Part shown: piece after piece, positions 16,867 to 38,714 of the stretch
How the letters are laid out: every line of letters begins with the position of its first letter
Position numbering within the stretch: position 1 is the stretch's first letter
NCBI GenBank assembly: GCA_963829525.1
Contig: CAWHIJ010000003.1
Location: forward strand, 1,888,001 to 1,952,000
Length of the DNA stretch: 64,000 bases
Direction: 5' to 3'
Source: an uncultured Actinomycetota bacterium
GTDB taxonomy: Bacteria > Actinomycetota > Actinomycetes > JAHEKZ01
Notes under the pieces: generated by a model
Seen by the model: the letters and a program-made list of their open reading frames with translations, nothing else
The model's database searches: none
What the model was told of the DNA's origin: nothing
Position numbers and translations under genes: made by a program

Positions 16867-16913
16867 GGCGCACAGTCTCCCAGACTCATCCGGCTGCCCC
16901 GGCCTGGGGAGCA

Positions 16914-18382: not shown

Positions 18383-18383
18383 C

Positions 18384-19082
18384 TCACTCACCTGTCGCGA
18401 TCTCGAGGTAACGGTCCGAGGCCGCTTCCTGACTCAGCTGGGTCGTCGACTCGACGTCGTAGAACTTGCCGACGGTGTCGGCCTCCTCCGAAGCGACCGC
18501 CGACGTCACTGTCGGCTCAATGAAGCCCTCTTGCCTGGCCAGTGTCTGCAACCAGGAAGCGATTGCGTCGAAGTTGTTGGACTTCCCGGTGAAGGTGATC
18601 GAGCCCATCGTCGGCACGCCGAGCGGAGTAGTAGGAACGGTAAGAGCCGTTACGCCGGTCGGGTCCAGTTGGGCGGCGGCAGCGTTGTTGACTGCCGTCA
18701 GGGTGGAAAGTCGCGTCGACTTCGGGATCGTCAGGCTGAGGTCGTTGAGGTAGAACGACCAGCGCACCTCGGGCGTCATGGCGGTGACCAGATCGTCCTG
18801 TGCAGCCTGCACTTCGGCAAGCACGAGGGGCACCTCTGCGTAGCTGGCGACCTCCGCCTGAAGGTCGCTTCCTTCAGCCTGAGCTGCCGACAGGTCCTCC
18901 TCGGCTCCTCCCACCTGGCCACTTGCCAGGAGGAAGATCATCACGACGAGTGCCATGACCGCGAGCACCATGAGCCCAAGCATGACCTGCAGCTTCTTGA
19001 GCTTGGCCGCTGCCGCAATCTCCGGCGGAAGCAGGTTGACCCGCGGCATCTGTGCCAGCCGGGTCGGCGTCAGTGTGGTCAT
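18384..19082 (-). CDS. pilN: Type IV pilus alignment protein PilN
   Basis: VNLLPPE N-terminal PilM-binding motif, TM helix, WSFYLNDLSLTIP. Confidence 0.85.
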   Translation of the reverse strand: MTTLTPTRLAQMPRVNLLPPEIAAAAKLKKLQVMLGLMVLAVMALVVMIFLLASGQVGGAEEDLSAAQAEGSDLQAEVASYAEVPLVLAEVQAAQDDLVTAMTPEVRWSFYLNDLSLTIPKSTRLSTLTAVNNAAAAQLDPTGVTALTVPTTPLGVPTMGSITFTGKSNNFDAIASWLQTLARQEGFIEPTVTSAVASEEADTVGKFYDVESTTQLSQEAASDRYLEIATGE

Positions 19083-20143
19083 GATGCGCCTCCGAGTGCG
19101 AGGCCAACGGGCACGGCAGCCAGCGGCTCGACGAACTCCATCTGTTCTGGACTCAGCCCGGTCTTGCCGATCACCAGCTCACCGAACGCCGATCCGCGCT
19201 CTACCTCGACGCGAGTCGAGTTGAAGAGCCGCTCGGACAGGCCGGCGAGGCGAGAGCCTCCACCGGTGACCACGATTCGCTCGATCGGCCTGGCTCCTGG
19301 CGACGCGGTGTAGTAGTCGAGGGAGCCACGCACCTGGTCGATGAACGCCTGGCCAGCGGCCTCCATGACCCGACCGGCCGCCTGTGCCTTTGGGTCCTCG
19401 TTGTTGGTCGACATCCCCATCTCGTGCTTGAGCGCCTCGGCCTCGGTCTGCTCTGACCCGGTGCGCTCGGCCAGTGCGTCAGTGACGTCGGCACCGCCCA
19501 TGAGCAGGATGCGGACAAAGCGCGGAGCGCCGCCCTCGTGGACCACGATGTTGGTGACGCGGGCTCCGACGTCGATAAGGGCCTCCATGGTGCTGCCCAT
19601 GCCGAGGTCGTCGCTGTCAGCGAGCGAGCGGAGCACCGCGAAGGCGGTGAGGTCGACCATCACGGGTTGCAGTCCAGCGTCAGTCACCGCCTGAAGTTGG
19701 GCCTCCACCATGTCCCGCTGCGCCGCAACGAGCAGCCCGCGGTAGGTGCGGGTACCGTCCTCGGTGGTCAGTTCTTCAAGCGGGTAGTAGTCCAGCAGCG
19801 CCTGGTCGACGGACATCGGGATGGTGTCCTGCACAACGAAGGGCAACGACTCCTTCAGTTCGTCGAGAGGCTGCCAGGGAAGGTCGACCTGACGAACGAT
19901 GACCTTCTGGTTCGCGACGCCAACGATCACGTTCTTGCTGCTGAACTTGGTGTGTGCCCAGAGTTGCTTGATCGCCTCGGCCACTGCGCGTGGCTGAACC
20001 ACCTCGCCGTCACGGACGGCCCCCTCAGGGAGGGCCACTTGACCGAACTTCTCGAGGGTGATGCCTGACTTGCCGAACGTGAGCTCGGCTGCTCGAACAC
20101 CGGACGTGCCGATGTCCAGGCCGATGGCTGTGCGTGCTGCCAC
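19079..20143 (-). CDS. pilM: Type IV pilus actin-like protein PilM
   Basis: IGLDIGTSGVRAAE, LIDVGARVTNIV, IVVTGGGSRLAGL, AVPVGLALG. Confidence 0.92.
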   Translation of the reverse strand: MAARTAIGLDIGTSGVRAAELTFGKSGITLEKFGQVALPEGAVRDGEVVQPRAVAEAIKQLWAHTKFSSKNVIVGVANQKVIVRQVDLPWQPLDELKESLPFVVQDTIPMSVDQALLDYYPLEELTTEDGTRTYRGLLVAAQRDMVEAQLQAVTDAGLQPVMVDLTAFAVLRSLADSDDLGMGSTMEALIDVGARVTNIVVHEGGAPRFVRILLMGGADVTDALAERTGSEQTEAEALKHEMGMSTNNEDPKAQAAGRVMEAAGQAFIDQVRGSLDYYTASPGARPIERIVVTGGGSRLAGLSERLFNSTRVEVERGSAFGELVIGKTGLSPEQMEFVEPLAAVPVGLALGGAS

Positions 20144-20215
20144 GTCTCTCCCCTTCACACCGGCGGCCGCGTTCGGCCAGGTGGGTGAGTCCTTTCGGAC
20201 TATGTCAGCGGGATG

Positions 20216-20242
20216 ATCGGCGCATCGGGGGCCGCCCTTGAG
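20216..20242 (-). promoter_or_regulatory. sigma28 (FliA/WhiG)-type promoter for pilMNO
   Basis: Minus strand CTCAAG-N15-GCCGAT. Confidence 0.7.
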
Positions 20243-20299
20243 TGCTAACTCAGAATTGCTCTACGTCGACTACCGAATCCTGGCCGGCCCGTGGGCCGA

Positions 20300-21079
20300 T
20301 CAGGTGAGGGTGTCGAGGTACGTGTCCCACAGCTGGCCACCCCAGAGGATGGCCAGCAACGCACCGAGCAGCATGAAGGGGCCGAAAGGGATCTTGCTCT
20401 TGCGCCCGGCCTTGCGCACCAGCATCAGTGCGCCACCGATCAGGGCTCCCAGAAGGAATCCCAGGAATCCGCCGACGACGAGCACCCCCCAACCCAGCCA
20501 GCCAAGGGCAAGGCCGAGGACGCCGGCAAGCTTGACGTCACCGAAACCCATCCCGGACGGGTAGATGACCGCGAGCAGGAAGTAGAAGCCGAAGAGCGCA
20601 AGGGCCGCCAGCCAGGCCCGCAGATAGGCCGACCAGTCGCCGTCGATCGCGGCTGGCAGCAGGAAGAGCAGGCCCAGCACGACGTAGCTCGGCAGAGTAA
20701 GGACGTTGGGGAGTCTCTTGGTGTCCAGGTCGATGACGGCCAGTGCAAGACCCACGGAGGCCAGGTAGAGGTAGGGCGGCAGCTCCCAGCTCCAACCGAA
20801 GTGCCAGAGCACGACCAACCAGAGCGCTGCGTGGCCGAGCTCGACGAGCGGGTAGCGCACACTGATTGGCTCGCTGCAGTGCCGGCATCGCGCCCGCAGG
20901 AGCAGCCAGGAGACCACCGGGATGTTGTCGCGGGAGGCGATCTCGGTGCCGCATCGTGGGCACCGAGACCGCGGGGACACCACGGACTCGCCCTCGGGCA
21001 CTCGCGCAATGACGACATTCAGAAATGAACCAATGAGCAGCCCGACGATCCCGAGCAGGACAGCGAAGTAGGTCTCCAC
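20300..21079 (-). CDS. pilD: Prepilin peptidase/N-methyltransferase
   Basis: GSFLNVVIARVP, CPRC...CRHC zinc sites, DNIPVVSW, IDLD...GMGFGDVKLA, IPFGPF. Confidence 0.95.
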   Translation of the reverse strand: METYFAVLLGIVGLLIGSFLNVVIARVPEGESVVSPRSRCPRCGTEIASRDNIPVVSWLLLRARCRHCSEPISVRYPLVELGHAALWLVVLWHFGWSWELPPYLYLASVGLALAVIDLDTKRLPNVLTLPSYVVLGLLFLLPAAIDGDWSAYLRAWLAALALFGFYFLLAVIYPSGMGFGDVKLAGVLGLALGWLGWGVLVVGGFLGFLLGALIGGALMLVRKAGRKSKIPFGPFMLLGALLAILWGGQLWDTYLDTLT

Positions 21080-21129
21080 GAAGACGATCTAAGCCCGGTC
21101 GAACCCGAGAGACGGTGCGCGACGCGCCG

Positions 21130-22534
21130 TCAGCCGGTGTACTCCAGCCACAGCGTCGTGTTGACCACGCTGTAGACCGGCGCCTCGACCGACTGGTCGT
21201 AGGTGATCGTCATCCCCTGAACACTGTTGCTGCCGGCAGCAGCACAGGTGTTGTTGGCGATCAGCGCACCCTTCACCGTGGCGCTCGACGTCTGCAGGTC
21301 GATCTTGTCTCCGGCCATCATCAGGCCAGACTGAGCCGTGGAGTTGGCGCTGCCGTTGAGGTTGCCCTGGGCGATGAAGAGAACCCCACGCAGGTAGTTC
21401 TGGATGTCGAAGAGCTTCCAGTCGATGTTGCCGCCGAACTTGTTGCAGGTGGCGGCGTTGGTGTAGCCGGTGGGGGTCGTCGACTCGGCGAGCACAGTCA
21501 CCGTCTGGACGACCTGGCGAGTTGCCGTTCGCACCGATCTGCGCGTTGGCGCCATACACGTAGTAGACGCCCGGGTACGAGGTTCCGGTGTTCTGCAGCG
21601 TCCAGGTACCGGGGGTGGTGGCGTTGCCGGCTGTCCAGTACCAGCTGCGGTAGGGCGATGCCGACACCTGCGTACCTGTGCATGGACCACTCGCCGATGG
21701 CAGCTTCACGACGCCGGTATCGCAGAGGTCGTACCACTGACCCGTCACGGTGGCGTAGTCGGTGTAGACGGCACGCGGGTTGGCAACTGGAACACGCTCG
21801 GTCCCTTGGCCGGTCTTGCAGCCGCCGACGATTCCGCTACGCGCAAGCGTTGACCGTTCCGACCGCCGTGATGGCTCCCGAGACGTTCAGGCTGTTGTTG
21901 ATGCCGGTCACATTGGCGTTGGTGTGGATGTCGGCCGGCAGCCCGGCAATGGCGTTGATCGCCGACGCTTCCCGAGAAGTCGATGTTGCCGCCGGTGAGC
22001 AGCGCCTTGCCCGGGCGGTACGGCGCAAAGATGTACTCCGCCTTCAGCATCCGCTCCTTGGCGTCCACAGCCGTCCGGGACGGAGACCAACCCATGGAGA
22101 AGACGATCTGACGTCCGGGCACCTTGAAAGCCACGTACTGGCCTTGGCCGTTGCTTCGGGTACAGCTGGCCGGCAGAGCGTTCAGTGCGGCCCTGGCCCA
22201 GGCCTGTTCGGTCGCCGCGTGTGGCGAAGACCGAGGCTGCCGGCGTCGCGGGCCGGCAGGTGCTGGATGACTCGTAGGCGACGCTCGGCACCTGGTTGCG
22301 AGCTGACTGGATATTGCTCAGTTCACGGTCGATCCCCGCCTCGGATGCCGCCAACGACTGCTCGAACTTGACGTGGTCACTGCTGCTGCCGAGCGACCGG
22401 ATCGCGGTGGCGGTGATCACTGCGAGCAGGATCGCCATCATGGCGCTGATCCCGATGACCAAGATTAGGCCGATTCCCTCGTCTTGGTTGACCAGGTTGG
22501 AGAGAGTACGGGCGCGCCGATTGCTGGTGGTCAT
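21130..22534 (-). CDS. Large PilX/GspK-like minor pilin (about 470 aa, several frameshifts)
   Basis: QDEG|IGLILVIGISAMMAILL class III signal lacking Glu5, QSLAASEAGI motif. The S/T/G/N-rich beta fragments are spread over four or five ORF frames. Confidence 0.65.
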
Positions 22535-22535
22535 G

Positions 22536-23147
22536 TCAGCCCACATTCCTGATGCGTTCGGTGAAGGTTGTAGTCCGGGACGCGGAGCCGGTATTCAGCA
22601 ACGCGTCGTAGGTCAAGGTGACCTTGACGAGCTTGGTGGCTGCTGCATTCGCCGCCGAGAGCGGCACCGGCAAGCACTGGGCATCGATGTCCGCAGATGC
22701 CAAGTAGCAGAACGCAAGTTGGTTGACCAAGGTTCGTGCCTGCGTCTGCACCTGACCGCCAGCCGTCGACCGGAGCGTGTTGTACTGCACCCCTGATCCG
22801 TTGTCGACCACGGCCCAGGTGATGATCTCGTCGGCCTGCGCGGTCGCGCTCCGGATGTAGTCGGAGTTGTAGTCGATCCAGAGCACCAAGTTGCTCTCGG
22901 TCGCGCCGGCGTCAACACCACGCGAACCGCGAATGTCACGGCCTAGCCGTTCGACGACGACCCGGGTGTCAGACAGACCGGTGGCCTCGTCCTCGGCGAT
23001 CCGCACCTGCTTGTTGCTCATCATGACGGCCACCGACACGATGGCCCCAAGGATGCTGACCAATACCATCGCAACCAACAGCTCGACCAGGGTCATCCCC
23101 TCGTCACTGCGCAGGCGCGTTCTGAATGGATGCACGTCAGGCCACAT
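22536..23147 (-). CDS. Minor pilin (PilW-like)
   Basis: SDEG|MTLVELLVAMVLV class III signal peptide; LGRDIRG motif. Confidence 0.85.
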   Translation of the reverse strand: MWPDVHPFRTRLRSDEGMTLVELLVAMVLVSILGAIVSVAVMMSNKQVRIAEDEATGLSDTRVVVERLGRDIRGSRGVDAGATESNLVLWIDYNSDYIRSATAQADEIITWAVVDNGSGVQYNTLRSTAGGQVQTQARTLVNQLAFCYLASADIDAQCLPVPLSAANAAATKLVKVTLTYDALLNTGSASRTTTFTERIRNVG

Positions 23148-24781
23148 TCACGTAGAGGAACGACTTAGAGCCTGGCTGCTCGTAGTCGAGCCGAATCTTC
23201 TGCCCAGCAGTTCCGGTCGTCCAGAGTCTCACCGACAGGTTCTGCGGCGAACCCTGGACCTTGTTGGCGACGGTGAACGATGAGCTCACGGTCATGGGCA
23301 CATTCACCCGAGCCCAGGTGTTGGCCGTCGCACAGCTGACCGTGGCCGAACCGATGTCCTTGCTCGTCCAGGTGCCTGGAGACTTCTCGTTGAAGGTGCC
23401 GATGGCGCCGTTGAGCGTGACATTGGCTCCCGTCGCCGGGCAGGAGACCATGACGCTCGCCGTAGCGGTAGCGGCCGCCACCGTCTTTGTCGACGCCGGG
23501 TTCCACCGCCACTCCGCCATCTGACTCGCTGTGCTCGACGTTGCCGTATCCGCCGGTGGTCAGCGACCGACCCGTGCCGTTCCCCAGCCTCGGTGGAGTA
23601 GTTGGCGCTCGCCGGCTGGTTGAGGCACGTGTTCTCGGTCATTGAGTTGACCAGCTGGCTGGTAGTGGCGCCGCTGGTCGCGGTGATCCCGTTCCGGAAT
23701 CCGAAGGGCGTTCCCACGCCTGCCGGCGTGGGCGGTGCACACGGTGCTGACGGCGCGGTGGACGGTACCGGTCGGAGCTGGGCGATGCACTTCCTCCGGT
23801 TGAGCCAGTGGTGACGGTGACCGTGAACGGGCCGACAGCAACAGCTGCTCCCGAGGCCGTGGGCTGAGCCGACGACAAGAAGTTGAAAGTCACGCTCGAC
23901 AGCCCCCAGCTCCGTCGAGGGAATGGCGCGGTGCGCCGTTACGCAGAAGGGCGGGTTGTTGTTCGGGTCCAGCTTTCCGGTATCAGGCTGGTTGTTGCCG
24001 AGCGCCGAGTCGGTGTTGCTCAGGGTGGTGTTCTCGCCGACATCGCGACTTCCGTCGCAGTCGGTGTCGACATAGTAGGTCCAGGTGCCGGCTGACGCGC
24101 TCAGGTTGAAGGTATCCCTCGCGCCACGGTTGACCACCTGGAACCCCCAGGTGAGTGTTGTACTGGGGTTCTGGGTCACCGTCGTCGCCGACGTCGGCGT
24201 CACGCCGTAGCTGGGTAGGGGGAGCCCCCGCGTGGTTTCGGTCAACAGAGTCGAGACCACTCGCTCATGTGATGACCCGTAGGAGCTCCAGGTAACCACC
24301 GTGGTGAGCCGCTTCTGGTACGGCTGCGACGCGCTGTCGTTGGTGACTCCTGCGGGAACAGTCACGTAGGTCTTGGTGGTGTACGACGATTCCGATCCGC
24401 GGTGGCCGGCTGGGCCACGACATGCGGGCTGATCGAGCCGGTCGTCTTCGCCCAGACGTTCTCCTGGCCGATTCCGTTCGGAACCGTGTACTTCGGCGTC
24501 GCGCCGCCGGTGATCGCCGTGTCGTTGACCTGGAGGTCAGACGTCACCATGGCCAGAGTCGCGTAGTTCACCCCGCGGGCATTCTCGACGATCTTGTTGA
24601 GGACGTCGACAGCTTGCTGGTTCTGACGGGCAAGGACGGACGCCCGAACGCCAGCAATTCCTGCGGCGGCCATGGCCGAGAAGATGATGGTGGAGATCGC
24701 CAGCGCGATCACCATTTCGATCAATGTGAAGCCGTCGCTCTGCTGCGTCTGACGCAGCCGCCCGCGCAGAAATGAGATCAC
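23137..24781 (-). CDS. Large minor pilin with an adhesin-like C-terminal region (about 550 aa, frameshifted)
   Basis: SDG|FTLIEMVIALAIS signal, KRLTTVVTWSS pilin end, then S/T-rich beta domains across ORFs 24362-24859, 23304-24365, 23639-23893 and 23137-23520; AAAGGAG SD before GTG 24781. Confidence 0.65.
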
Positions 24782-24815
24782 AGCACGCTCCTTTGGTCCT
24801 CGCCCATGGCGCCCT

Positions 24816-24842
24816 ATCGACTTCGTTGAGTGGTGTCTTGAG
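24816..24842 (-). promoter_or_regulatory. sigma28-type promoter for the minor pilin operon
   Basis: Minus strand CTCAAG-N15-GTCGAT. Confidence 0.65.
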
Positions 24843-24922
24843 TGAGAGGGGGGGCGCAAGCCCCTGTTTCCGCCCTGGAATCACCCATGCGGCCTAGGTC
24901 GAGAAGCAACACGCCGGCAAAG

Positions 24923-24960
24923 CGAAGGACCCAGGCCGCCGGGGCGACCTGGGTCCTTCG
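24923..24960 (-). terminator. Terminator hairpin after the major pilin
   Basis: CGAAGGACCCAGG...CCTGGGTCCTTCG stem followed by CTTT on the minus strand. Confidence 0.75.
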
Positions 24961-24975
24961 ATGATCGGTGAAGGG

Positions 24976-25401
24976 TCAGCAGCCGCCGGCGGCGAGACCG
25001 CCCTCTTCGCTGTTGTAGTGCCAGGTCTTGCTGATGCGAGTGTTGTTCGCTTCGATGCAGTACGCCTGTCCGTTGTTGACGAGCCCCGAAGTGACAGCGG
25101 TGTCAGGGTCGGAGATCTTGACGTCCGTGGTGTCACCGTTGGTCGAGGTGACAGTCACAACCTGGCCAGCCTGGCCGGTGGTGCCGTAGGCCTGCGTGTC
25201 AGTGAAGAACGACTCCAACTCGTTCGCCACGGCGCGCAGGTCAGACTTCATGCCGGACTCCGTCGCCTTGTTGCGCTGGTTCAGGAAGACCGGGATTGCG
25301 ATGGCGGCAAGAATGCCGATGATGATGATGACGACCAGGAGCTCGATGAGGGTGAAGCCGCCTTCACGCTCCTCCATGGCCTTGCGAATTCGAGCGAGCA
25401 T
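24976..25401 (-). CDS. pilA: Major type IV pilin
   Basis: MLARIRKAMEEREGG|FTLIELLVVIIIIGILAAIAIPVFLNQR, KSDLR, C-terminal Cys pair; has its own promoter and terminator. Confidence 0.93.
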   Translation of the reverse strand: MLARIRKAMEEREGGFTLIELLVVIIIIGILAAIAIPVFLNQRNKATESGMKSDLRAVANELESFFTDTQAYGTTGQAGQVVTVTSTNGDTTDVKISDPDTAVTSGLVNNGQAYCIEANNTRISKTWHYNSEEGGLAAGGC

Positions 25402-25486
25402 TGTTGTCCCTTTCCAACTGTCGGTGAGCCGTGCGGCGCTCGCCCTTGGGTGATCCGTCACGGACAAGTCCGCTCCGGAGTCAGCC

Positions 25487-25556
25487 GAGGTAGCTGGGCC
25501 GACCACTGAGGTCCCCTGGCTTTGCGACCCTGCCTTGCGACAGGTGTGCCGTTTCT
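25487..25556 (-). ncRNA. c-di-GMP-I (GEMM) riboswitch aptamer in the pilA 5' UTR
   Basis: Minus strand GAAAC-GGCACA-CCTGTC-GCAA-GGCAGG-GTCGCAAA-GCCAGGGGACC-TCAGT-GGTCGGCCCAGCTACC: GNRA-capped P2, conserved CGCAAAGCC and CTACC. Confidence 0.8.
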
Positions 25557-25583
25557 GGCCGGTTGGCTCTTTACGGATACTTC

Positions 25584-25610
25584 TTCGACCCAGCGATGGG
25601 GCACCTTTAG
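25584..25610 (-). promoter_or_regulatory. sigma28-type promoter for pilA, upstream of the riboswitch
   Basis: Minus strand CTAAAG-N15-GTCGAA. Confidence 0.7.
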
Positions 25611-25630
25611 CACCCGAAGTCACGGGTTGG

Positions 25631-26851
25631 TTACTTGATGAGGTCGAAGATCTTGAAGATCGGCATGTACATCGCCACGATCATCGCCCCGACAATGCCA
25701 CCAAGGAACGCGATCATGAGCGGTTCGATCAGCGAGGTCAGCGCCTCTGTGGTGGCCTCGACCTCTTGGTCGTAGAACTCCGAGATCTTGTGCAACATCT
25801 CATCCAGTGCACCGGTGTCCTCACCGACCGACATCATCTGCACCACCATGGGTGGAAAGACCTTGTGATGGGCTAGCGGCGCCGTCAGCGACTCACCGTT
25901 GCGCACGCTCTCTTGGACGTCTCTCACCGCCTTGGCGACCACGCTGTTACCGGAGGTGTCCGCCACGATGTCCAGGCTCTGCAGGATTGGCACACCAGCA
26001 TGCAGCATCGTTCCGAAGTTGCGGGTGAATCGGCTGAGGGCGATCTTCTGGAAGAGACCGCCGAAGACCGGCATCTTCAGCTTCAACGGGTCGAGGAAGT
26101 TGCGCACCTGCTCCTTGTGCTTGACCCGCTTCCACACGATCATGAAGACGATCAGCCCGATGATGATGAACGGAAAGAACGTCTTCAGCAGGTGGCTCAT
26201 GTTCACCAGGATCTGGGTGGGCAACGGCAGCTTGGCCCCGAGACCTTCGAACATCTTGGCGAAGACCGGCACGATGAAGAGCAGCATTCCGGTCACGGCC
26301 AGCATGGCCATCACGAAGACCACCACGGGGTAGGTCATGGCACTCTTGATCTTGCCCTTCAGCTTGACCTCAGCCTCGTAGTTCTCAGCGATCTGCAACA
26401 GCACGCCGTCGAGGAAGCCACCGACCTCACCGGCTCTGACCATGTTGATCATCAGCGGTGGAAAGACCTCAGGATGCTGGGCCAGCGCCCCAGAGAGTGG
26501 ATTGCCGGTCTCGACGTCGTTGCGCACCTCGGCAAGAACCTTGGCGAGCGTCTTGTTCTCGGTTTGCTCCGAGAGGATGTTGAGCGCACGAAGGAGGGAG
26601 AGCCCAGAGTTGATCATCGTCGCGAACTGTCGAGACATGATCGACAGGTCCTTTAGCTTCACCTTGCCGCCGAAGCCGGGAATCTTCAGCTCGGTCTTCA
26701 TTCCGCTGCTGGCCTTGGAGATGCTGACCGTGGCGTAGCCCATGCTGCTCAGCTTCTGTGCAACAGCCGACTGCGACTCCGCTTCAAGCGTGCCCGAGAC
26801 GATCTTTCCGGTCTTGTCGCGGACCTGATACTGGAAGGTCGTGGTTCCCAT
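25631..26851 (-). CDS. pilC: Type IV pilus platform protein PilC (T2SS F family)
   Basis: SRQFATMINSGL, RAGEVGG, KIKSAMTYP, VGEDTGAL, LIEPLMI. Confidence 0.93.
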   Translation of the reverse strand: MGTTTFQYQVRDKTGKIVSGTLEAESQSAVAQKLSSMGYATVSISKASSGMKTELKIPGFGGKVKLKDLSIMSRQFATMINSGLSLLRALNILSEQTENKTLAKVLAEVRNDVETGNPLSGALAQHPEVFPPLMINMVRAGEVGGFLDGVLLQIAENYEAEVKLKGKIKSAMTYPVVVFVMAMLAVTGMLLFIVPVFAKMFEGLGAKLPLPTQILVNMSHLLKTFFPFIIIGLIVFMIVWKRVKHKEQVRNFLDPLKLKMPVFGGLFQKIALSRFTRNFGTMLHAGVPILQSLDIVADTSGNSVVAKAVRDVQESVRNGESLTAPLAHHKVFPPMVVQMMSVGEDTGALDEMLHKISEFYDQEVEATTEALTSLIEPLMIAFLGGIVGAMIVAMYMPIFKIFDLIK

Positions 26852-26865
26852 GTGTGACGCTCCCG

Positions 26866-28509
26866 TCAGCCTCGGCCGGTAAGCCGGTTGAAGTCTTCGA
26901 TGTGGTGGCACTTCTCAGTACCGGTCTCGTACGTGATGCGTCCCTTGTTGACGAGATCGGCCAGATGCTGGTCCATGGTCTGCATGCCGAACTTCGACCC
27001 GGCCTGCATCGCGCTGTAGATCTGGTGCGTCTTCCCTTCACGAATCAAGTTCCGGATGGCTGGAGTGGCCACCAAGATCTCGCAGGCCACTACCCGCCCT
27101 TTGCCGTCAGTCGTCCTGGCCAGGGTCTGGCAGACCACCCCTTGGAGCGACTGGGCGAGCTGAGCACGCACCTGCTGTTGCTGGTGGGGAGGGAACACGT
27201 CGATCACACGGTCGATGGTCTGTGCCGCGTCCTGGGTGTGCAGCGTCGCGTAGACGAGGTGACCGGTCTCTGCGGCGGTGAGGGCAACCCCGATCGTCTC
27301 GAGGTCGCGCATTTCACCGACCAGGATGATGTCGGGGTCCTGACGTAGCACGTGCTTCAGCGCGTTCTTGAAGGACTTGGTGTCCTCGCCGACCTCACGT
27401 TGGTTCACCAGACTCATCTGGTGGCGGTGCAAGAACTCGATCGGGTCCTCACACGTCATGATGTGCTCTTTGCGCTGACGGTTCGCCAGGTCGAGGAGCG
27501 ACGCCAGGGTGGTGGACTTGCCCGAACCGGTGGGGCCGGTGACGAGGACGAATCCACGTGGAAGAGCTGCGAAGTTGGCCACCTGAGTCGGAACGCCGAG
27601 GTCCTCGAGCTTCTTGATCTCGAAGGGGATGATGCGGAAGGCAGCGCCGACGGAGTCCCGCTGGCGGTACATGTTGACGCGGAAGCGCGCCCGTCCTGGC
27701 ACGGAGTAGGCGAAGTCCAGCTCGAGCTCCTGCTCGAAGTGCTCGCGCTGGCGCTGGGTGATGGCTGCATACATGACCCGCTGGATCACCGGGGGCGTCA
27801 GCACCGGGTACTGATCCATCTGGGAAAGCTCACCATTGACGCGGATCGCCGGACGGGCACCTGCGGTGATGTGCAGGTCCGATGCGCCCATCTCCAACAT
27901 GTGCAGCAGCAGTTCAACAAGGACGATCTCGTCGCCGGCCAGGCTCGGCTCGGTGGAGACGCGGGTGTAAGCCGACTCGTCCACCTCGGTGTCCGCCAGC
28001 TCCATGGGCTCTGGAGTGGCGTACTCCTGCACGTACTCAGCTTCTGGTGCCCGAAACTCGGTCAGCTCTTCAACCTGGGCACCTTCACCCGCACCGGCAG
28101 TCTCTGAGTCGTCCGGGGTCTTGCCCTGGTCGTCGTGGAAGGCCTGGTAGTCGAAGGTGGCCGGCTCCGGGTCGCTTTCTACGTCGACGGTCGCGGCCTC
28201 CTCTGCGGCGATCGTCAGCGACATCGGAAGTCCCGAAGATGCTTCCGGGACGGTCTCCTCCGGTGCCAGCAGGGATCCGGAGTCGAACGACGTGGGGTCG
28301 AACGACGTGGGCTCGAAACTGGGCACTGCATCACCCGCGGGGTCACCAGCGGGCTCCGTCACGGCTTCATCGGCTGGGTGGGCGGCTGGCTCAGCGGTCG
28401 TCGTGGGGGCCGGCGCCGGCGTGAAGAACTCCATGTCCGAACCGGGTGCGGGAGCGTCGGGGCGAGAGTCATCACCCTGCGGCGCACCGCTGAACTCTGT
28501 GGTCTCCAC
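26866..28509 (-). CDS. pilT: Pilus retraction ATPase PilT with a ~190 aa acidic N-terminal extension
   Basis: ASDLHI, GPTGSGKSTT, EDPIE, LRQDPDIILVGEMRD, TLHT and the PilT-diagnostic AIRNLIRE; AAGGAGG SD before GTG 28509. Confidence 0.93.
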   Translation of the reverse strand: METTEFSGAPQGDDSRPDAPAPGSDMEFFTPAPAPTTTAEPAAHPADEAVTEPAGDPAGDAVPSFEPTSFDPTSFDSGSLLAPEETVPEASSGLPMSLTIAAEEAATVDVESDPEPATFDYQAFHDDQGKTPDDSETAGAGEGAQVEELTEFRAPEAEYVQEYATPEPMELADTEVDESAYTRVSTEPSLAGDEIVLVELLLHMLEMGASDLHITAGARPAIRVNGELSQMDQYPVLTPPVIQRVMYAAITQRQREHFEQELELDFAYSVPGRARFRVNMYRQRDSVGAAFRIIPFEIKKLEDLGVPTQVANFAALPRGFVLVTGPTGSGKSTTLASLLDLANRQRKEHIMTCEDPIEFLHRHQMSLVNQREVGEDTKSFKNALKHVLRQDPDIILVGEMRDLETIGVALTAAETGHLVYATLHTQDAAQTIDRVIDVFPPHQQQQVRAQLAQSLQGVVCQTLARTTDGKGRVVACEILVATPAIRNLIREGKTHQIYSAMQAGSKFGMQTMDQHLADLVNKGRITYETGTEKCHHIEDFNRLTGRG

Positions 28510-28576
28510 GTCGAGCTGCCTCCTTGGGCGTACACCACGAGCACCACCATCGGCGGTGGTACCCCTGTAGCGGTCT

Positions 28577-28603
28577 TTCGGCGTCTAGAGGTCACCCCTT
28601 GAG
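28577..28603 (-). promoter_or_regulatory. sigma28-type promoter for pilT-pilC
   Basis: Minus strand CTCAAG-N15-GCCGAA. Confidence 0.7.
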
Positions 28604-28675
28604 CCGACTCCCGGAGAACTAGTCATCGGAAGTGCACGACAGGCGTCCAATCGACCATCGGGCGTCCCACCGGGC

Positions 28676-30343
28676 CTAGACGACGACGCGCAGGATCTCG
28701 TCGATCGTGGTGACCCCGCTGGCGACTTTGAGCATCCCGTCGTCGCGCAGGGTGCGCATGCCTTCGGCCCGCGCCGTCTCGGAGATGACCGTCGCCGAGG
28801 CGTGCTCGACCGCGTGGCGCTCAACGGCCTCCGAGACCGCCATCACTTCGTGCAGAGCCAGGCGACCTCGATAGCCGGTCTTCGAACATGCGGTGCACCC
28901 GACCGCCCGGTAGAGGGTAGGAAGCTCTTGCCCGTCCACCCAGGGAAAGCGAGCCTGCACCAGTGCGTCGGGTGTCGGTTGGTATGCCTCCTTGCACTTC
29001 GAGCAGAGCCGGCGAGCCAGACGCTGGGCCAGGACGCAGTCCAGGGCCGACCCCACCAGAAATGGCTCGAGCCCCATCTCGGTGAGCCGGGTGACGGCCG
29101 ACGGGGCGTCGTTGGTGTGCAGGGTCGAGAGAACGAGGTGACCGGTCAGGGCCGCTTCCACTGCGATCTGGGCGGTCTCGTGGTCGCGGATCTCACCGAT
29201 CAGAACGATGTCGGGGTCACAGCGAAGGATCGACCGCAGCGCCGCGGCGAAGGTGAGGCCAGCCTTGGTATTGGTCTGCACCTGGTTGATGCCAGGAAGC
29301 CGGTACTCGACCGGGTCCTCAACGGTGATGACATTGACCTCGGGGCGGGCGATCTGGTTGAGCGTCGCGTAGAGCGTCGTGGACTTTCCCGAACCGGTCG
29401 GTCCAGTCACCAAAATCATGCCGTATGGCTTGGAGAAGCTCCGGGCAAAGACTTCGCTGTTGAACTCCGAGAACCCCAGGTCTGACAAGGCCATTTGTGC
29501 ATTGGAGTTGTCCAGGATTCGCATGACGACCTTCTCGCCCCAGACAGTAGGGAGCGTCGCAACGCGAAGGTCGATCTTCTTTCCTTGGTGATTGACCGAG
29601 AGTCGTCCGTCCTGGGGAACGCGTCGCTCGGCGATGTTGATGTCCGACATGATCTTCAGGCGGCTGATGACCCCAGACTGGATGTTCTTCGGTGACTTCA
29701 TCACCTCATGCAGCACGCCATCGATCCGGTACCGCACGACCAGGGAGTGCTCGTTCGGCTCGAGGTGGATGTCGGAGGCTCGGTCCTGGATCGCCTGGGT
29801 GATGAGCAAGTTGACGAACTTGACGATCGGGGCGTCCTCGACCACCTCCTTCAGCCCAGCGAGGTCCTCCTCGTCCTCGTCACCGTGCATGACGGCGGTG
29901 AGGTCGTCGAGGTCGGAGTCGGCGCGGAAGTACCTGTCGATGGCGCCCAGGACGTCGGCTCGTGTGGCGACGACTGGTCGGACCTCGAGGCCGGTGATCG
30001 AGCGGATGTCGTCGATCGCGAAGACGTTCGCCGGATCGGCCATGGCGACCAGCAGCTTGCCCTCATCGTCGATCCGCAGGGGCAGGGCGGAGTGCTTGCG
30101 GCAGATGGCTCCCGAGACCCTGGCGATGATGCTTCCGTCGACGGGGTAGTCGCCCAGGTCGACGAACTCAAGACCGATCTGTTGGGCGAGCGCGGCTACG
30201 AGCTGCGACTCGGTCAGAACGCCCTGGTCGACGAGGACCCGGCCGAGAGCCTTGCCCTGTTCCTTGTGCTCGCGAAACGCAGCGAAGAGCTGGTCCTCGG
30301 TGACCAGACCGTCCTGCAACAGGATGTCGCCCAGCTGCTTCAC
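28676..30343 (-). CDS. pilB: Pilus extension ATPase PilB with an MshEN-like N-terminus
   Basis: ASDIHLEP, AERRVPQDG, GPTGSGKSTTLY, EDPVEY, CSKC/CTAC zinc motif, GYRGR. Confidence 0.95.
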   Translation of the reverse strand: MKQLGDILLQDGLVTEDQLFAAFREHKEQGKALGRVLVDQGVLTESQLVAALAQQIGLEFVDLGDYPVDGSIIARVSGAICRKHSALPLRIDDEGKLLVAMADPANVFAIDDIRSITGLEVRPVVATRADVLGAIDRYFRADSDLDDLTAVMHGDEDEEDLAGLKEVVEDAPIVKFVNLLITQAIQDRASDIHLEPNEHSLVVRYRIDGVLHEVMKSPKNIQSGVISRLKIMSDINIAERRVPQDGRLSVNHQGKKIDLRVATLPTVWGEKVVMRILDNSNAQMALSDLGFSEFNSEVFARSFSKPYGMILVTGPTGSGKSTTLYATLNQIARPEVNVITVEDPVEYRLPGINQVQTNTKAGLTFAAALRSILRCDPDIVLIGEIRDHETAQIAVEAALTGHLVLSTLHTNDAPSAVTRLTEMGLEPFLVGSALDCVLAQRLARRLCSKCKEAYQPTPDALVQARFPWVDGQELPTLYRAVGCTACSKTGYRGRLALHEVMAVSEAVERHAVEHASATVISETARAEGMRTLRDDGMLKVASGVTTIDEILRVVV

Positions 30344-30410
30344 GCCAACGCCCTCCACCCTCGGCCGCCCCACAGGGGTTTGTCCCCCGGGCCCCGATGT
30401 CTTGCACTAG

Positions 30411-30436
30411 ATCGGCCGATCATGAGCGGGCTTGAG
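30411..30436 (-). promoter_or_regulatory. sigma28-type promoter for pilB
   Basis: Minus strand CTCAAG-N14-GCCGAT. Confidence 0.65.
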
Positions 30437-30459
30437 CGAACCGGCTTCCAGGAGGCCAT

Positions 30460-30771
30460 TTAGCCGCCGACCAGGGTGCGAGCAACCGCCCAAAAGGCGC
30501 CGACCCGAGGGTCGCCGGCGGCAAGCTCGTGACCCGAACCGTCGGCGAAGCCCAGGTAGACCCCACTCCGCGCAGGCTCCGGCGCCGCAGCCGGAGGAGC
30601 GTGGTCGGGCGCGGGAGCAGCCTCGAGCAGGTATTCGCTTCCCTGCTGCGGAGGCACCCCCGGCGCGGCTGAGGTCTGGGTTGGCGGGGCTTGGATCGTC
30701 GGCGTCGGCCGGCCCGCGGCGTGTCGTCCCTTCGGTGGTGCTTCGGGCGAGCGGCGGGAGAGCCAGCGCAT
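30460..30771 (-). CDS. Small hypothetical protein (103 aa)
   Basis: ATG ORF 17 nt downstream of the GTPase gene; Pro-rich N-terminus and a compact C-terminus GVYLGFADGSGHELAAGDPRVGAFWAVARTL. Confidence 0.55.
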   Translation of the reverse strand: MRWLSRRSPEAPPKGRHAAGRPTPTIQAPPTQTSAAPGVPPQQGSEYLLEAAPAPDHAPPAAAPEPARSGVYLGFADGSGHELAAGDPRVGAFWAVARTLVGG

Positions 30772-30788
30772 GAATGATCCGTCCGGCG

Positions 30789-31364
30789 TCAGACGCCCGC
30801 GGTTGCCGTTTCGACCTCGTCCAAGACCGAGTACAGCAGCGCAAGCAGAACCGCCTTGACCGACTCCTTGTCGGTGGCGTCACATGGCACGAGCGCAACA
30901 GAGCTGTCGACGCCCAGCGTCTGACGGATCCGGGCCTCCTCCACTTCGTCGACGCCGGTCGTGCGGTTCAGAGCCACGACGAACGGGACGCGCGCCATCC
31001 GACGGAAGGCGTCGAGGATGCCGACCGCCTCGGCGAGCGAGTCCGGCCGGTTGGCATCGAGAAGCAGGACGTAGCCGAGCATGCCCTCGCCGAGGATCTC
31101 CCACATGAAGTCGAAGCGCTCTTGACCAGGTGTACCGAACAAATAGAGGACGAGCTCGCGGTCGATGGTGATACGGCCGAAGTCCATCGCCACGGTGGTC
31201 TCGTTCTTGCGTGACCGCGTGCTGTCGGAGATCCCACGCTCGGTCGAGAGCACAGTGATCTCGCTGATCGTGCGGATCAGCGTGGTCTTGCCGGCGGCGA
31301 ACGGTCCGGTGATCACCACCTTGACGGCCTGCCCACCGTGTCGACGGCGTTGTTTGGTTGCCAT
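30789..31364 (-). CDS. MglA-like small Ras-superfamily GTPase (ATP/GTP-binding protein)
   Basis: KVVITGPFAAGKTT (G1), TTVAMDFGR (G2), LFGTPGQERFDFMW (G3), VVALNR (G4). Confidence 0.9.
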   Translation of the reverse strand: MATKQRRRHGGQAVKVVITGPFAAGKTTLIRTISEITVLSTERGISDSTRSRKNETTVAMDFGRITIDRELVLYLFGTPGQERFDFMWEILGEGMLGYVLLLDANRPDSLAEAVGILDAFRRMARVPFVVALNRTTGVDEVEEARIRQTLGVDSSVALVPCDATDKESVKAVLLALLYSVLDEVETATAGV

Positions 31365-31365
31365 G

Positions 31366-32672
31366 TCAGAGCCCCCGGACGCCGGCGATGAGGCGCAGCA
31401 TGAGGCTGCGGTTGACGGTGGGATCACGTTCGATGGCGCTGTCGCCGGCCGGAGCAGCGGCTGTGGCCACGCCTGCAGCACCGCCTGCTCCCCCGACCGA
31501 ACCTCCCGAGAGGGGCGCGGGCATGCCGGGCCCTCCTCCGACCGAAGTGGCGGCCGTCCCCGTTCCGGCAACGACTGGCGATGCGAATCCGGGGGCGCGA
31601 CCCGGTTCTGGATGGTCGACATCACGCGGAGGAAGGAAAGGCTCAGGGCGCGGTGGGACGACCTTGGCCGGGTCGTGCGCGCCCGGCAGCAGACCCGGGT
31701 CGGCTGTGGCAGCTGCCGGAGCGGGAACCGAGACGGGTGGGGCCGGTTGCGGCATCGGTACGGTCGGCGCAGTCGGAGGCGAGCGGGCCGCCGGCCGTTG
31801 CCGGAATGGTCGCGTCAGGAATGACCAGCCCCTGTGGCTGACCAGGGAAGGCACCATTGCCCGGTGGCCCCCTGAGGGGCGGCCGACTCAGCTGGCGGTG
31901 TGGCTGCGGCTGCTTCCAGCGGCGCCAGCAGTTGCTGCCGGCGCATGACGAGCGAGACGTGGTCGGGGCTTTCCTCGTCCCGCAGGACGAGCAGACCTCG
32001 CTGGATCAGCGTGGCCAGCGTCGAGACACGACGGTGTACTGCCCGGCGCCGGAGACCTCGACGAGGTCACCGACCGAGCGAGTTCCGTCGATGAGAGCAA
32101 GCAGTGCCCACTCGTCGCGTTCCAAAGTCGTGTTCTCCGGCAGCACCACGGGCATGGTCAGCACCACGTCAGGGCTTGGAATCAGCCGTGACAGGGCCTC
32201 CCAAGACTCCCGTCGAGTCGTTGCCTCACCGACGATCTGCTCGGCGGGGACGACGAGCCCCACTTCGTCAGGGTTCTCCTCGCCCATGCCGAAGGCGAAG
32301 TCGCCGTTCGGCCATCGCAGCAGATCGAAGACGGCATCGACAGTCTGCTCCAGCGCCAGTCGCTGCACGCAGTGCGCTGTCGACCGATCCGGCCTCGACC
32401 AGAGCTCGGGCGACGCCTGCACCGTCGGCAACAGCACGTTCAACGGCACGCCGCAGAGCCGCGTCGTCGGCGGCACCCAGGCCGACAAGACGACGGGCGA
32501 GGGCTTGTCGGGCGATGTCGGAGACTGCACCGGTGACCATGCCGTCAGCGAAGAAGACCACGCCGGAGACCTGACCGTTGGTCAGGTGAAGTCCTCCGGA
32601 CTTCTTCGTCAGGCTGAGCAGCTGGAAGACGTCCGGAAGACTGAAGGCGTCGAGCGAACCTTCGAGCTTCAC
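31366..32672 (-). CDS. DUF4388 (PATAN-like) domain protein, frameshifted
   Basis: MKLEGSLDAFSLPDVFQLLSLTKKSGGLHL, VFDLLRWPNGDFAF, EWALLALIDGTRSVGDL, Pro-rich linker, C-terminal RDPTVNRSLMLRLIAGVRGL*; spread over about four frames. Confidence 0.75.
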
Positions 32673-32727
32673 GTCAGGTCACGATCCTTTGATGACAGGA
32701 GTGGCGAGGGTGGGAGTGAGTGGCCGG

Positions 32728-33433
32728 TCAGGACCAGGAGCTGCCGTCGGATGCCACAACTGCTGGCCGACGATCTTCTGGCTGGACCGGGGTGAGGTGC
32801 GGGAACCGGTCGTCGGACGAGGGAGTCCGCTCCGAGGCGTGCTGGGGCGTCGGTTCGGGCTGCACCTGAACAGGTTGGGTCTGCACCTGCTGCATGCTGA
32901 ACCGGGACGGGCTGCACCTGCTGCGGCTGAACCGGGACGGGTTGCACCTGCTGCGGCTGAACCTGTTGGGTCTGTACCTGCTGCGGCTCAGGCGCAACGT
33001 TGACCAGGGCCGGTAGGGGCTCCACGTCGATCCGGAGGGACGTGCCAACCGCACCGGCAGCCTGCTTGACCTCGAACAGCATCAGGCCGACCTTGGCGCC
33101 GACGCGACCGACCGCGACCAGAACGGCCTCGTCGTCAGCGCTGACCAAGAATACTGTGCCGTTGTCGCCCTCGACGTACACCTGGGAGAGGTCACCGCGA
33201 CCAAGCCCCTGCGCGGCACGTTCGCCGAGAGAGAGCAGGGCCGCCGACATCGCGGCGACCCGATCCTCGTCCATGCCGGCCGGAAGCGCCGATGCCATCG
33301 GCAGGCCGTCGAAAGAGACGACCGCTGCAGCCTCGATGTCTGGGGCCTGGCGCAGCAGCGCCCCCAGAATCTGGTCGAGCTGAAGCGAACGTCCTGCGGC
33401 ACCGCTGAGTGCGGCGGCGTAGGGATCTGACAT
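32728..33433 (-). CDS. Roadblock/LC7 (MglB-like) protein with a Gln/Pro repeat tail
   Basis: IEAAAVVSFDGLPMAS, DRVAAMSAALLSLGERAA, QVYVEGDNG, KVGLMLFEVK. A 1-nt insertion in the repeat (~32894) shifts the frame; restoring it gives ...GSSWS* at 32728. Confidence 0.85.
32865..32990 (-). repeat. 30-bp degenerate tandem repeat encoding (QPQQVQPVPV)-like units
   Basis: Plus-strand units resembling CTGCACCTGCTGCGGCTGAACCGGGACGGG, about four copies. Confidence 0.8.
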
Positions 33434-33497
33434 GGTGCACCTCTCGCGATCGGACCGCGTCGCCGGTCGGGAGAGCCGACCGGACCTTAGAGGGTGC

Positions 33498-33524
33498 TTC
33501 GGCTGTGTTACTGGTCCTCTTGAG
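33498..33524 (-). promoter_or_regulatory. sigma28-type promoter for the roadblock-DUF4388-GTPase operon (overlaps the aroE 3' end)
   Basis: Minus strand CTCAAG-N15-GCCGAA. Confidence 0.7.
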
Positions 33525-38646: not shown

Positions 38647-38714
38647 ACCGGGCGGCTCCTCGTGACGGACTGGTGATCGAATCTTCAGCCTATCGAAGGG
38701 GCTTGGTCGAACCT

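Follow-up and report, generated by a model that had tools for sequence, protein, structure and literature searches.

Gene content of the locus

The window analysed here is a 64,000-nucleotide stretch of DNA from an uncultured Actinomycetota bacterium (assembly GCA_963829525.1, contig CAWHIJ010000003.1, positions 1,888,001 to 1,952,000), and the subject of this study is a candidate G-protein module that it carries at the head of a type IV pilus locus. An earlier reading made without database searches, which we call the sequence-only reading, had described the module as an operon of four genes, encoding a roadblock/LC7 protein, a DUF4388 protein, a small GTPase and a 103-amino-acid (aa) protein, that lies upstream of and co-oriented with the pilus genes. 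The minus strand does carry these four genes, followed downstream by pilB, pilT, pilC, the pilins, pilD and pilM/N/O.

In the direction of transcription, the module begins with the roadblock/LC7 (MglB/CvnB-like) gene (32728..33433, with its start at 33433; Robl_LC7, PF03259, E-value 2e-18). This is followed by the DUF4388 gene (31366..32672; assigned by Pfam DUF4388), whose product we call the PATAN protein after its domain and which is 433 aa long once five bases are omitted (see below). The third gene is intact and encodes a small Ras-like GTPase of 191 aa (30789..31364; ATP_bind_1, E-value 6e-19; Ras, E-value 3e-5). It starts one base past the PATAN stop codon. The last gene encodes the small conserved protein of 103 aa (30460..30771), recognised by a profile hidden Markov model (HMM) of its C-terminal motif. 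The upstream neighbour of the module is aroE (33508-34383).

The pilus genes, also on the minus strand, open with pilB for the extension ATPase (28676..30373; T2SSE, E-value 1e-140; MshEN, E-value 2e-23). They continue with a PilT/PilU-family retraction ATPase of 547 aa (26866..28509; TIGR01420, 485.5 bits against a cut-off of 319.1, over residues 197-536; T2SSE, E-value 1e-47) and the platform protein gene pilC (25631..26911; T2SSF, E-value 2e-69). The remainder of the cluster (17732..25623) comprises three pilins with an N_methyl match (24976-25623, 24362-24859 and 22536-23147), pilD (20300-21079), pilM (19079-20158), pilN (18384-19082) and pilO (17732-18391), as well as open reading frames (ORFs) without an assigned family. 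With PilB, PilT, PilC, prepilins bearing an N-methylation motif, a prepilin peptidase and PilM/N/O, the cluster encodes a type IVa pilus system, probably with retraction, although PilB itself scored 654 bits against TIGR02538, just below the cut-off of 675.65. The genes aroC, aroK, aroB and aroQ come after the pilus genes. The module and pilus block is thus nested in a conserved mltG-aroE ... aroC-aroK-aroB-aroQ operon, with the module at the head of the block.

A PilT-containing pilus was part of the sequence-only reading, and with the PilT-family ATPase above its cut-off the pilus is probably retractile. Integration with cyclic di-GMP (c-di-GMP), which had also been proposed, stands only in part. 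The N-terminus of PilB carries an MshE-type c-di-GMP-binding motif (NF053729, 60.9 bits against a cut-off of 38), and this is the only link: a scan of part of the window's ORFs detected neither a GGDEF nor an EAL gene. The PilT-family ATPase has a low-complexity N-terminal extension of ~195 aa, rich in P, A and E, with little conservation beyond the genus; the alignment of class-level relatives to this protein begins only at ~residue 166-181. A second PilB/GspE-like ATPase, 41-45% identical to the PilB of the window, is encoded elsewhere in the genome (G000:C3:912970-914658) and in most relatives, and is not accompanied by a second copy of the GTPase.

Frame breaks in the PATAN and roadblock genes

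In the deposited sequence, the reading frame of the PATAN gene is interrupted: it first meets a stop codon after 134 aa, and the coding sequence is distributed over three frames. The sequence-only reading had overlooked these breaks. Single extra bases at 31777, 31865, 32028, 32030 and 32369 are absent from contigs of 97-99.9% identity from four public runs. Without them, the gene is one ORF of 433 aa with the conserved tail at its end, which aligns over its full length, at 85% identity, to the intact 432-aa orthologue at locus L029. A single PATAN ORF of ~360-460 aa is found in 12 of 16 loci of relatives. The broken PATAN loci among them come from few-contig assemblies, and one of these (L017) has further breaks in pilB, pilT, pilC and aroE.

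Housekeeping genes of the window are affected as well. The chorismate synthase gene aroC (15686-16932) is spread over three overlapping ORFs, and at alaS/rarA (37066-40057) the C-terminal domain of MgsA is fused in frame to the start of the AlaRS ORF. At mltG (34380-34979), a single ORF holds only the C-terminal part of YceG/MltG. Because these housekeeping genes are split, the near-identical contigs lack the five bases and most relatives are intact, the PATAN frame breaks are assembly errors and not decay. Frequent indel errors in this assembly call for caution with the gene calls of this genome.

The roadblock gene probably suffers from the same problem. Its tail shows an indel of +1 relative to locus L028 near position 32894, as a result of which the deposited ORF reads 32669-33433. 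The alternative frame (32728-33054) ends in ...ASDGSSWS, the same as in L029. This comparison points to one 1-base assembly insertion near 32894, so that the real end of the protein is probably the stop at 32728 (...SSWS). The tail contains a repeat (32893-32975) for which we found no bridging contig among the public contigs.

Conservation of the linkage to pilus genes

We assessed the linkage between module and pilus genes in two sets of loci. The first came from 41 related genomes, including that of the window and two unpublished genomes (G033 and G025). The second was a wider survey of one genome per prokaryotic species, in which the best 80 of 507 loci, all from metagenome-assembled genomes (MAGs), were scored with profile HMMs built from the proteins of the relatives. 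Related genomes are non-independent samples, and the counts are to be read accordingly.

Clear orthologues of the GTPase (66-100% identity) were identified in 27 of the 41 related genomes. All 27 also encode a PilB orthologue, and none of the six genomes that lack a PilB orthologue has that of the GTPase. In each of the 16 loci of relatives, aroE or the contig end is followed by the roadblock, PATAN and GTPase genes. The pilB-pilT-pilC genes lie at most 3 kb downstream of the module in 14 of the 16 loci; the distances in the remaining two are 10.6 and 13.9 kb.

The wider survey contained 65 Actinomycetota loci, labelled as Nanopelagicales, Sporichthyaceae, Frankiales, Mycobacteriales, Acidothermus, Nitriliruptorales, Solincola and Acidimicrobiales. 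pilB was found downstream on the same strand in 58 of these, at less than 3 kb in 55 cases. Of the seven loci without pilB, three have less than 3.2 kb of downstream sequence. Roadblock and PATAN genes were present in all 57 Actinomycetota loci with enough upstream sequence, the roadblock gene being two genes before the GTPase. In the other 15 loci, labelled as Chloroflexota, Aquificota or other, PATAN and GTPase always occurred together and a roadblock gene was present in eight. The sequence-only reading had made its case depend on a conserved linkage to pil genes, and this linkage is indeed conserved, both among the relatives and across the Actinomycetota loci.

The arrangement of the genes is not uniform. 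Solincola-type loci have three tandem roadblock genes. More broadly, seven loci of Solincola-type/Geothermincolia and Acidimicrobiales labels (L077, L079, L080, L083, L084, L088 and L102) have two to three of them. Where the PATAN frame runs through in these seven, the protein is giant (1081-1465 aa) and has the same helix at its C-terminus. Further along these loci come GTPase, aroE, pilB, pilT and pilC, in this order. The variation in roadblock number, PATAN size and position of aroE argues against mere inheritance of one frozen block.

Some further variants were seen. An ORF of ~610-630 aa lies between the module and pilB in some family-level relatives (L033, L036 and L039) and also in L018 and L019. 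Among the non-actinobacterial loci, two PATAN-GTPase pairs are found close together in L097 (83-1468 and 3037-4411), and L098 has a second roadblock-GTPase pair (2058-3060, minus strand).

WhiG-type promoter motifs

The consensus sequences of Actinomycetota WhiG/FliA promoters, as given in the main text of PMC12871210, are CTCA-N16-17-GCCGA and T(A/C)AA-N16-GCCGA. A motif scan of the window found five matches to the former against 2.55 expected, a count that by itself is not significant. Four of the five are located directly upstream of the roadblock, pilB, pilT and pilM genes on the coding (minus) strand. The roadblock motif is a WhiG/FliA (sigma28)-type CTCAAG-N15-GCCGA (33499..33524), and the pilB motif is a CTCAAG-N14-GCCGA of the same type (30412..30436). 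The others are a WhiG/FliA-type motif before pilT (28578..28603) and a WhiG-type motif before pilM (20217-20242). These four sites agree with the sequence-only reading, which had held that the module and the pil genes have a sigma28-type motif in common. The extended form CTCAAG-N14-15-GCCGA occurs at 15 sites in the 2.96-Mb genome, four of them in this 13-kb stretch.

In related loci, (C)TCAAG...GCCGA was found upstream of the roadblock gene in 39 of 61 cases, against a background of 113 in 5000 random windows (2.3%), and upstream of pilB in 13 of 57. It was absent from the eight Solincola-type and eight Chloroflexota loci tested. A promoter scan of positions 28400-33700 found no sigma70 promoter-like sites, and an intrinsic terminator scan of the same region gave two terminator-like sites against 2.1 expected, both intragenic.

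A single FliA/WhiG-family sigma factor of the genome passes the curated cut-off (284 bits; G000:C3:2245451-2246128). No flagellin match was found in this genome, which is 97% complete. The main texts of PMC8325347 and PMC12871210 describe WhiG control of type IV pili as known in Rubrobacter and Actinoplanes and as predicted in other families. By analogy with Rubrobacter, the pilus cluster may be the main target of the WhiG-family sigma factor here. The locus resembles the Rubrobacter RsiG-c-di-GMP-WhiG and Actinoplanes FliA systems in its CTCA-N16-17-GCCGA-type motifs before pil operons, here in a genome with a WhiG-family sigma factor and no flagellin match. In contrast to both, the regulatory module itself carries the best-conserved WhiG-type motif in the present case. 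Within their main texts, as distinct from figures and supplements, the two papers name no GTPase, roadblock, PATAN, DUF4388, pilB or MglA.

Family placement of the GTPase

The GTPase contains the motifs G20-x4-GKT, E55-T56-T57, G77-T78-P79-G80-Q81 and N133-R-T-T. Its alignment (A2) has 33 invariant columns, and G77TPGQ81 is invariant in 40 sequences. In the G3 motif DxxG, Thr replaces Asp and is followed by the catalytic Gln (TxxGQ); the former replacement is a hallmark of the MglA family according to the texts of PMC3000849 and PMC4316618. The hallmarks of Group 1, to which true MglA belongs, are lacking: where an Arg finger would be expected the protein has T56-T57, and its G3 reads GTPGQ instead of TVPGQ. 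A true MglA is excluded on this basis. According to PMC4316618, the Arg is replaced by Thr in Groups 2-5, and GTPGQ is common to all of them.

Group 2 (CvnD) does not fit either. The operon contains no kinase and no Pfam match to DUF742, and the G4 motif is N-R-T-T and not NxFD. The GTPase also lacks the switch-I insertion found in the conservon GTPases of its relatives, which are its closest paralogues at 43-48% identity. A quick maximum-likelihood tree, whose root is arbitrary and whose careful search is unfinished, separated nine conservon GTPases from 79 PATAN-linked GTPases with a support of 100 in the Shimodaira-Hasegawa-like approximate likelihood ratio test (SH-aLRT). Membership of a conservon is excluded by this split together with the gene content.

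The description of Group 5 fits best. The text of PMC4316618 places this group in Actinobacteria, Chloroflexi, Aquificae and others, sometimes beside PATAN genes. The GTPase corresponds to it by description only, in GTPGQ and TT, in its taxa (Actinomycetota, Chloroflexota and Aquificota-labelled MAGs) and in its PATAN neighbours. Judged by its sequence motifs, the GTPase is thus a member of the MglA family of the Groups 2-5 type, neither a true MglA nor a conservon CvnD, with Group 5 as the best fit. Among the top Foldseek matches of its AlphaFold2 (AF2) model (predicted local distance difference test, pLDDT, 84.9), MxMglA (6izw_A) had the highest TM-score (0.68) and identity (22%). The MglA-like label of the sequence-only reading, for which a phylogeny of MglA and CvnD had been proposed as a check, therefore stands at the level of the family and neither as Group 1 MglA nor as CvnD.

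The PATAN protein and its C-terminal helix

The intact orthologue at L029 matches the PATAN domain profile over its entire length (PF14332, positions 1-122 of 122; E-value 5e-23, 81.9 bits). The two deposited fragments in the window cover positions 1-77 and 66-122 of the same profile and match it at E-values of 2e-13 and 5e-6. An AF2 model of the PATAN protein has a pLDDT of 78 overall and of more than 90 at residues 1-250. Its core is the Pfam DUF4388 match at residues 4-158, followed by a winged helix at ~160-235. The best match of the winged helix by VIA-align was to a GATOR1 chain (Z 9.4 over 69 residues), with many MarR/AsnC/RRE matches at Z 5.7-6.9. A weak MarR_2 match was detected at residues 189-232 (E-value 9e-4). 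A Foldseek search of the model against the PDB gave no match at E ≤0.001, the best being to SEA/GATOR1 chains (E-value 0.12). The winged helix leads into a disordered, P/A-rich linker of highly variable length. In Actinomycetes-type loci, the linker contains a semi-conserved motif, VVPPRPEPF(L/M)PxR...HPE (~31640-31700 in the window; columns ~480-500 of the PATAN alignment A1).

The linker is followed by a C-terminal helix that is nearly invariant in the 42 orthologues of alignment A1, ending ...NRSLMLRLIAGVRGL, with the nearly invariant C-terminus IERDPSVNRSLLLRLIAGVRGL. The tail pattern is kept in Nitriliruptorales, Solincola-type and Chloroflexota proteins, including those from loci where no roadblock gene was found nearby. 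In most loci, the PATAN stop overlaps the GTPase start or is a few bases from it.

A co-fold of the GTPase with the DUF4388 protein, which the sequence-only reading had suggested, was run on the PATAN tail. The GTPase alignment with GTP and Mg was folded against residues 330-432 of the PATAN alignment in three runs and three controls. The three runs reached interaction prediction scores from aligned errors (ipSAE) of 0.84, 0.84 and 0.86, against 0.01 for the best control, and had at least 25% of their contacts in common. The predicted interface pairs tail residues 414-432 with GTPase residues 12, 14, 33, 65, 67-68, 71, 73, 94, 96 and 166-188. On the AF2 model of the GTPase, they map to beta1, beta2 (62-68), beta3 (71-77), beta4 and alpha5 (166-190). 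Across 40 sequences, the pocket residues I65, L73, K170, L173, L174 and L177 show little or no variation. As reported in the text of PMC6785124, the pocket on MglA that receives the C-terminal (Ct) helix of MglB is formed by alpha5, beta2 and the beta2-beta3 loop, and the helix has an exchange-factor role. The modelling supports a placement of the PATAN tail in this established regulatory pocket of the GTPase.

The roadblock and 103-aa proteins

The roadblock protein is a clear member of its family (PF03259, 66.3 bits against a cut-off of 23). A globular domain at residues 24-107 precedes a low-complexity tail rich in Q, P and V. Such roadblock tails are variable in sequence and end in SW[S/T/Q] in most loci (e.g., ...SSWS, ...SAWS and ...SSWQ), which suggests a candidate terminal docking motif.

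The N-terminal part of the 103-aa protein is P-rich and variable; its C-terminal ~35 aa form a conserved motif, V-x-LGF-A/S-DGS-x3-L-x3-DPR-x3-F-x2-A-x2-L. An HMM of this motif, built from the same ORFs that it counts, identified it in 45 of 80 loci, in an ORF located immediately downstream of the GTPase gene. In 39 of the 45, the ORF starts after the GTPase, and in six its stop-to-stop frame overlaps the GTPase end. By lineage, the 45 comprise 44 of 48 Actinomycetes-type loci and one deep-branching locus. Only one match to the HMM was found in the whole genome. The 103-aa protein itself had no family match in Pfam or NCBIfam. Its best ESM Atlas match (0.77), to an actinobacterial cluster, is a lead only. 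On the strength of the motif, the 103-aa protein is a conserved fourth component of the module. The roadblock, PATAN and 103-aa proteins, three of the four, are thus each built from a small folded part, a linker that is disordered and a terminal motif that is conserved.

Likeness to conservons

Conservons in the relatives (L113 and L115) encode, by Pfam, a NIT-HAMP-HATPase kinase, a Robl protein, a DUF742 protein and a GTPase. The sequence-only reading had set the module apart from conservons by its lack of a kinase and of DUF742. Pfam agrees on both, and the PATAN protein has no match to PF05331 (DUF742) at E ≤0.5, but its winged helix and C-terminal helix resemble those of DUF742, if only weakly by profile comparison, which would place the module nearer to the conservons than had been held.

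Nine DUF742 (CvnC) ORFs at loci L109-L116 (genomes G021, G026, G029, G035 and G037) end in ...LxxVLxGLxxL, with their stop beside the CvnD start. A joint C-terminal pattern, written after both sets had been seen, matched 41 of 42 PATAN proteins and all eight DUF742 proteins. Among 54,816 six-frame ORFs from the whole genome and the conservon loci, it matched ten, namely the nine DUF742 ORFs and the PATAN tail of the window. In Mycobacterium smegmatis, MfpC, a DUF742 protein, binds the GTPase MfpB and serves as its exchange factor for guanine nucleotides (GEF), and the roadblock protein MfpD is its GTPase-activating protein (GAP), according to the texts of PMC11343762 and PMC13343842. The main text of the MfpC paper does not contain the terms 'C-terminal' or 'C-terminus'. 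The C-terminal helix pattern of DUF742 may be the GTPase-binding element of the CvnC exchange factors.

Conservons and the Mfp system are alike in the order roadblock, middle gene, GTPase, and in the stop of the middle gene abutting the GTPase start. TT and GTPGQ are common to the conservon GTPases and that of the window, and the winged helix and C-terminal helix pattern of the conservon middle proteins is also found in the PATAN protein. The roles in those systems, as far as published texts state them, are GAP for CvnB/MfpD and GEF for CvnC/MfpC. In contrast to conservons, the module has no histidine kinase, and neither the switch-I insertion nor the NxFD G4 motif of CvnD is present in its GTPase, which falls on the other side of the quick tree (SH-aLRT 100). 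It also has the conserved small fourth protein and the linkage to pil genes. From these sequence features, we infer that the PATAN protein is a CvnC-like regulator of this GTPase.

Proposed function and alternatives

We consider it fairly probable that this kinase-less, conservon-like four-gene G-protein module regulates the type IV pilus machine encoded downstream. Genome context alone suggests this link. The switch would be the small MglA-family, non-Group-1 GTPase, with the roadblock protein as its putative GTPase-activating partner, by analogy with MglB, CvnB and MfpD. The PATAN protein would be a second regulator, whose C-terminal helix is predicted to dock in the pocket of the alpha5/beta2-beta3 hairpin of the GTPase. 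It is likely an exchange factor or a tether, because the MglB helix uses the same pocket for exchange and the C-terminal helix of the DUF742/CvnC exchange factors follows the same pattern. The probable connection to the pilus motor is the N-terminal PATAN domain of this protein, given what is reported for cyanobacteria: according to bioRxiv 10.1101/2021.06.11.447907, PATAN-domain regulators bind PilB1 and PilC in Synechocystis. The 103-aa protein would be a lineage-specific accessory, and transcription of the module would start, like that of the pil genes, at a WhiG/FliA-type promoter. We only infer the activities as GAP and GEF and a contact with the pilus motor, and likewise the output, which may be the place, the timing or the direction (extension or retraction) of pilus activity.

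Several results weigh against this reading. No pil genes were found in the flanks of any of the 15 loci labelled as Chloroflexota, Aquificota or other, and since the PATAN-GTPase pair occurs without them outside the Actinomycetota, the module is not intrinsically a pilus device. Nor does the pilus need the module, because eight of the 41 relatives (including G031, G032, G037 and G039) have an orthologous pilB and no module. In three of these (G031, G032 and G037), aroE directly adjoins pilB. By sequence profile and fold, the GTPase is about equally near to Rab/Sec4 and to MglA. For the co-fold, the calibration, in which 116 of 157 solved complexes but also 2 of 215 mismatched pairs attained the mark, holds only roughly, as our own alignments and ligands were used. 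The partner in the co-fold had a pLDDT of 45-46, which is below 50. Its score may also have been helped by likeness to the solved MglA-MglB Ct-helix complex (6IZW), in which the helix differs, being acidic and part of MglB. For the likeness to DUF742, the post hoc origin of the joint pattern counts, as do two profile comparisons. An hhalign comparison of PATAN columns 163-234 with DUF742 columns 38-109 (72 columns) gave an E-value of 6e-4 with a probability of only 28%, and a PATAN-tail HMM retrieved no DUF742 tail at E ≤50 and only the window's own tail (E-value 2e-10).

It is possible, if doubtful, that the module is a spatial polarity switch, as the sequence-only reading had proposed. Like MglA/MglB in Myxococcus xanthus and Thermus thermophilus, it would then choose the pole at which the pilus motor ATPase assembles. 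The parts are of the same kind, with a Thr-for-Asp G3 GTPase of the MglA family (PMC3000849) and a roadblock/LC7 partner, and a type IV pilus connection is also known for that system. In MglA/MglB, a short C-terminal helix of the regulator occupies the alpha5/beta2-beta3 pocket, and the PATAN helix is predicted to lie in the same place. PilT is present, so the pilus is probably retractile, and the text of PMC4316618 states that PilB and PilT are sorted by MglA and SofG in Myxococcus. However, the GTPase lacks the Group 1 hallmarks, namely the intrinsic Arg finger (T56-T57 here) and TVPGQ (GTPGQ here), and the locus showed no RomR/RomX, SgmX or Frz-like genes. The helix is also hydrophobic and basic and supplied by the PATAN protein, not by the roadblock protein. 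Whereas mglA is not near the genes of its partners (PMC4316618), the GTPase gene is in an operon with pilB, and its sequence similarity to MglA is no better than to Rab/Sec4.

We judge it unlikely that the module is a general conservon-like signalling system with a non-pilus output (e.g., growth, division or metabolism), whose place between aroE and pilB is a historical accident kept by vertical descent. Such a system would account for the PATAN-GTPase pairs without pil genes in all 15 non-actinobacterial loci and for the nesting of the pil and module block in a conserved aro operon. Moreover, most linked loci come from related lineages, so that the counts are non-independent. Yet the linkage extends across deep branches with differing arrangements (Actinomycetes, Nitriliruptorales, and Solincola/Geothermincolia- and Acidimicrobiales-labelled MAGs). 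The module was also found only in genomes with a PilB orthologue (27 of 27), and it has its own conserved WhiG-type promoter motif, of the same kind as those before pilB, pilT and pilM. Decay of the module in this genome, with the DUF4388 gene and the roadblock tail as true pseudogenes, is highly improbable. The DUF4388 gene does have five frame-breaking extra bases within 1.3 kb, and the roadblock tail probably has one, beside intact pilB, pilT, pilC and GTPase genes, but the contigs from four public runs that lack exactly those five bases, the restored ORF with its tail, the equally split essential genes of the same window and the similar breaks in pilB, pilT, pilC or aroE of few-contig assemblies count against it.

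Relation to known systems and significance

Regulation of the pilus by the module would have a parallel in the cyanobacterial PATAN-REC regulators (PixG, PixE, LsiR and others), where a PATAN protein is likewise found in a pilus-control setting. Unlike those regulators, the present system has no receiver domain and no chemotaxis-like input, and its PATAN protein is predicted to be coupled to a GTPase by a C-terminal helix. The text of bioRxiv 10.1101/2021.06.11.447907 notes that MglA/MglB homologues are regularly encoded near PATAN genes. The text of PMC4316618, and Makarova 2006 as cited there, describe MglA-family GTPases with MglB, sometimes beside PATAN genes.

The full texts of the literature consulted, apart from supplements and figures, contain no description of a roadblock-PATAN-GTPase(-small protein) operon heading pilB-pilT-pilC in Actinomycetota. 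Within the same scope, no WhiG-type promoter of such a module, no C-terminal helix or pocket of a PATAN protein and no pattern shared with CvnC were described. The sequence-only reading knew of no description of this arrangement, and this holds for the operon as such, but the association of GTPase, MglB and PATAN and the control of pili by WhiG were already in print. New are the 103-aa fourth component, the nearly invariant helix of the PATAN protein with its predicted pocket, and the C-terminal pattern in common with DUF742.

To our knowledge, little is known of the control of Actinomycetota type IV pili beyond transcription by WhiG/FliA. We likewise know of no defined mechanism for CvnC in the conservon-type G-protein systems, nor of defined outputs for most of them. 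The locus joins these two subjects, as a kinase-less relative of the conservons that has been kept beside pilB-pilT-pilC across deep branches and carries a conserved WhiG-type promoter motif of its own. It predicts that the roadblock protein is a GAP, that the PATAN protein is an exchange factor or tether acting through a helix of 15-20 residues and a particular pocket on the GTPase, that the PATAN domain contacts the pilus motor, and that the system includes a new small protein.

We tentatively suggest a wider view, which we hold with limited confidence. PATAN and CvnC may be two forms of one regulator, in which a winged helix precedes a C-terminal helix that plugs the alpha5/interswitch pocket of the GTPase and so drives nucleotide exchange. 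The kinase-less triad would be the older form of the actinobacterial G-protein systems, and its direct output in Actinomycetota would be the pilus motor, reached through the PATAN domain. If this is true, the conservon exchange factor would gain a mechanism and the conservon family its first physically defined output, and monoderm actinomycetes would steer a retractile pilus by a G-protein switch. Should the C-terminal helix prove to be common to both, CvnC proteins of Streptomyces and mycobacteria would work by this mechanism too.

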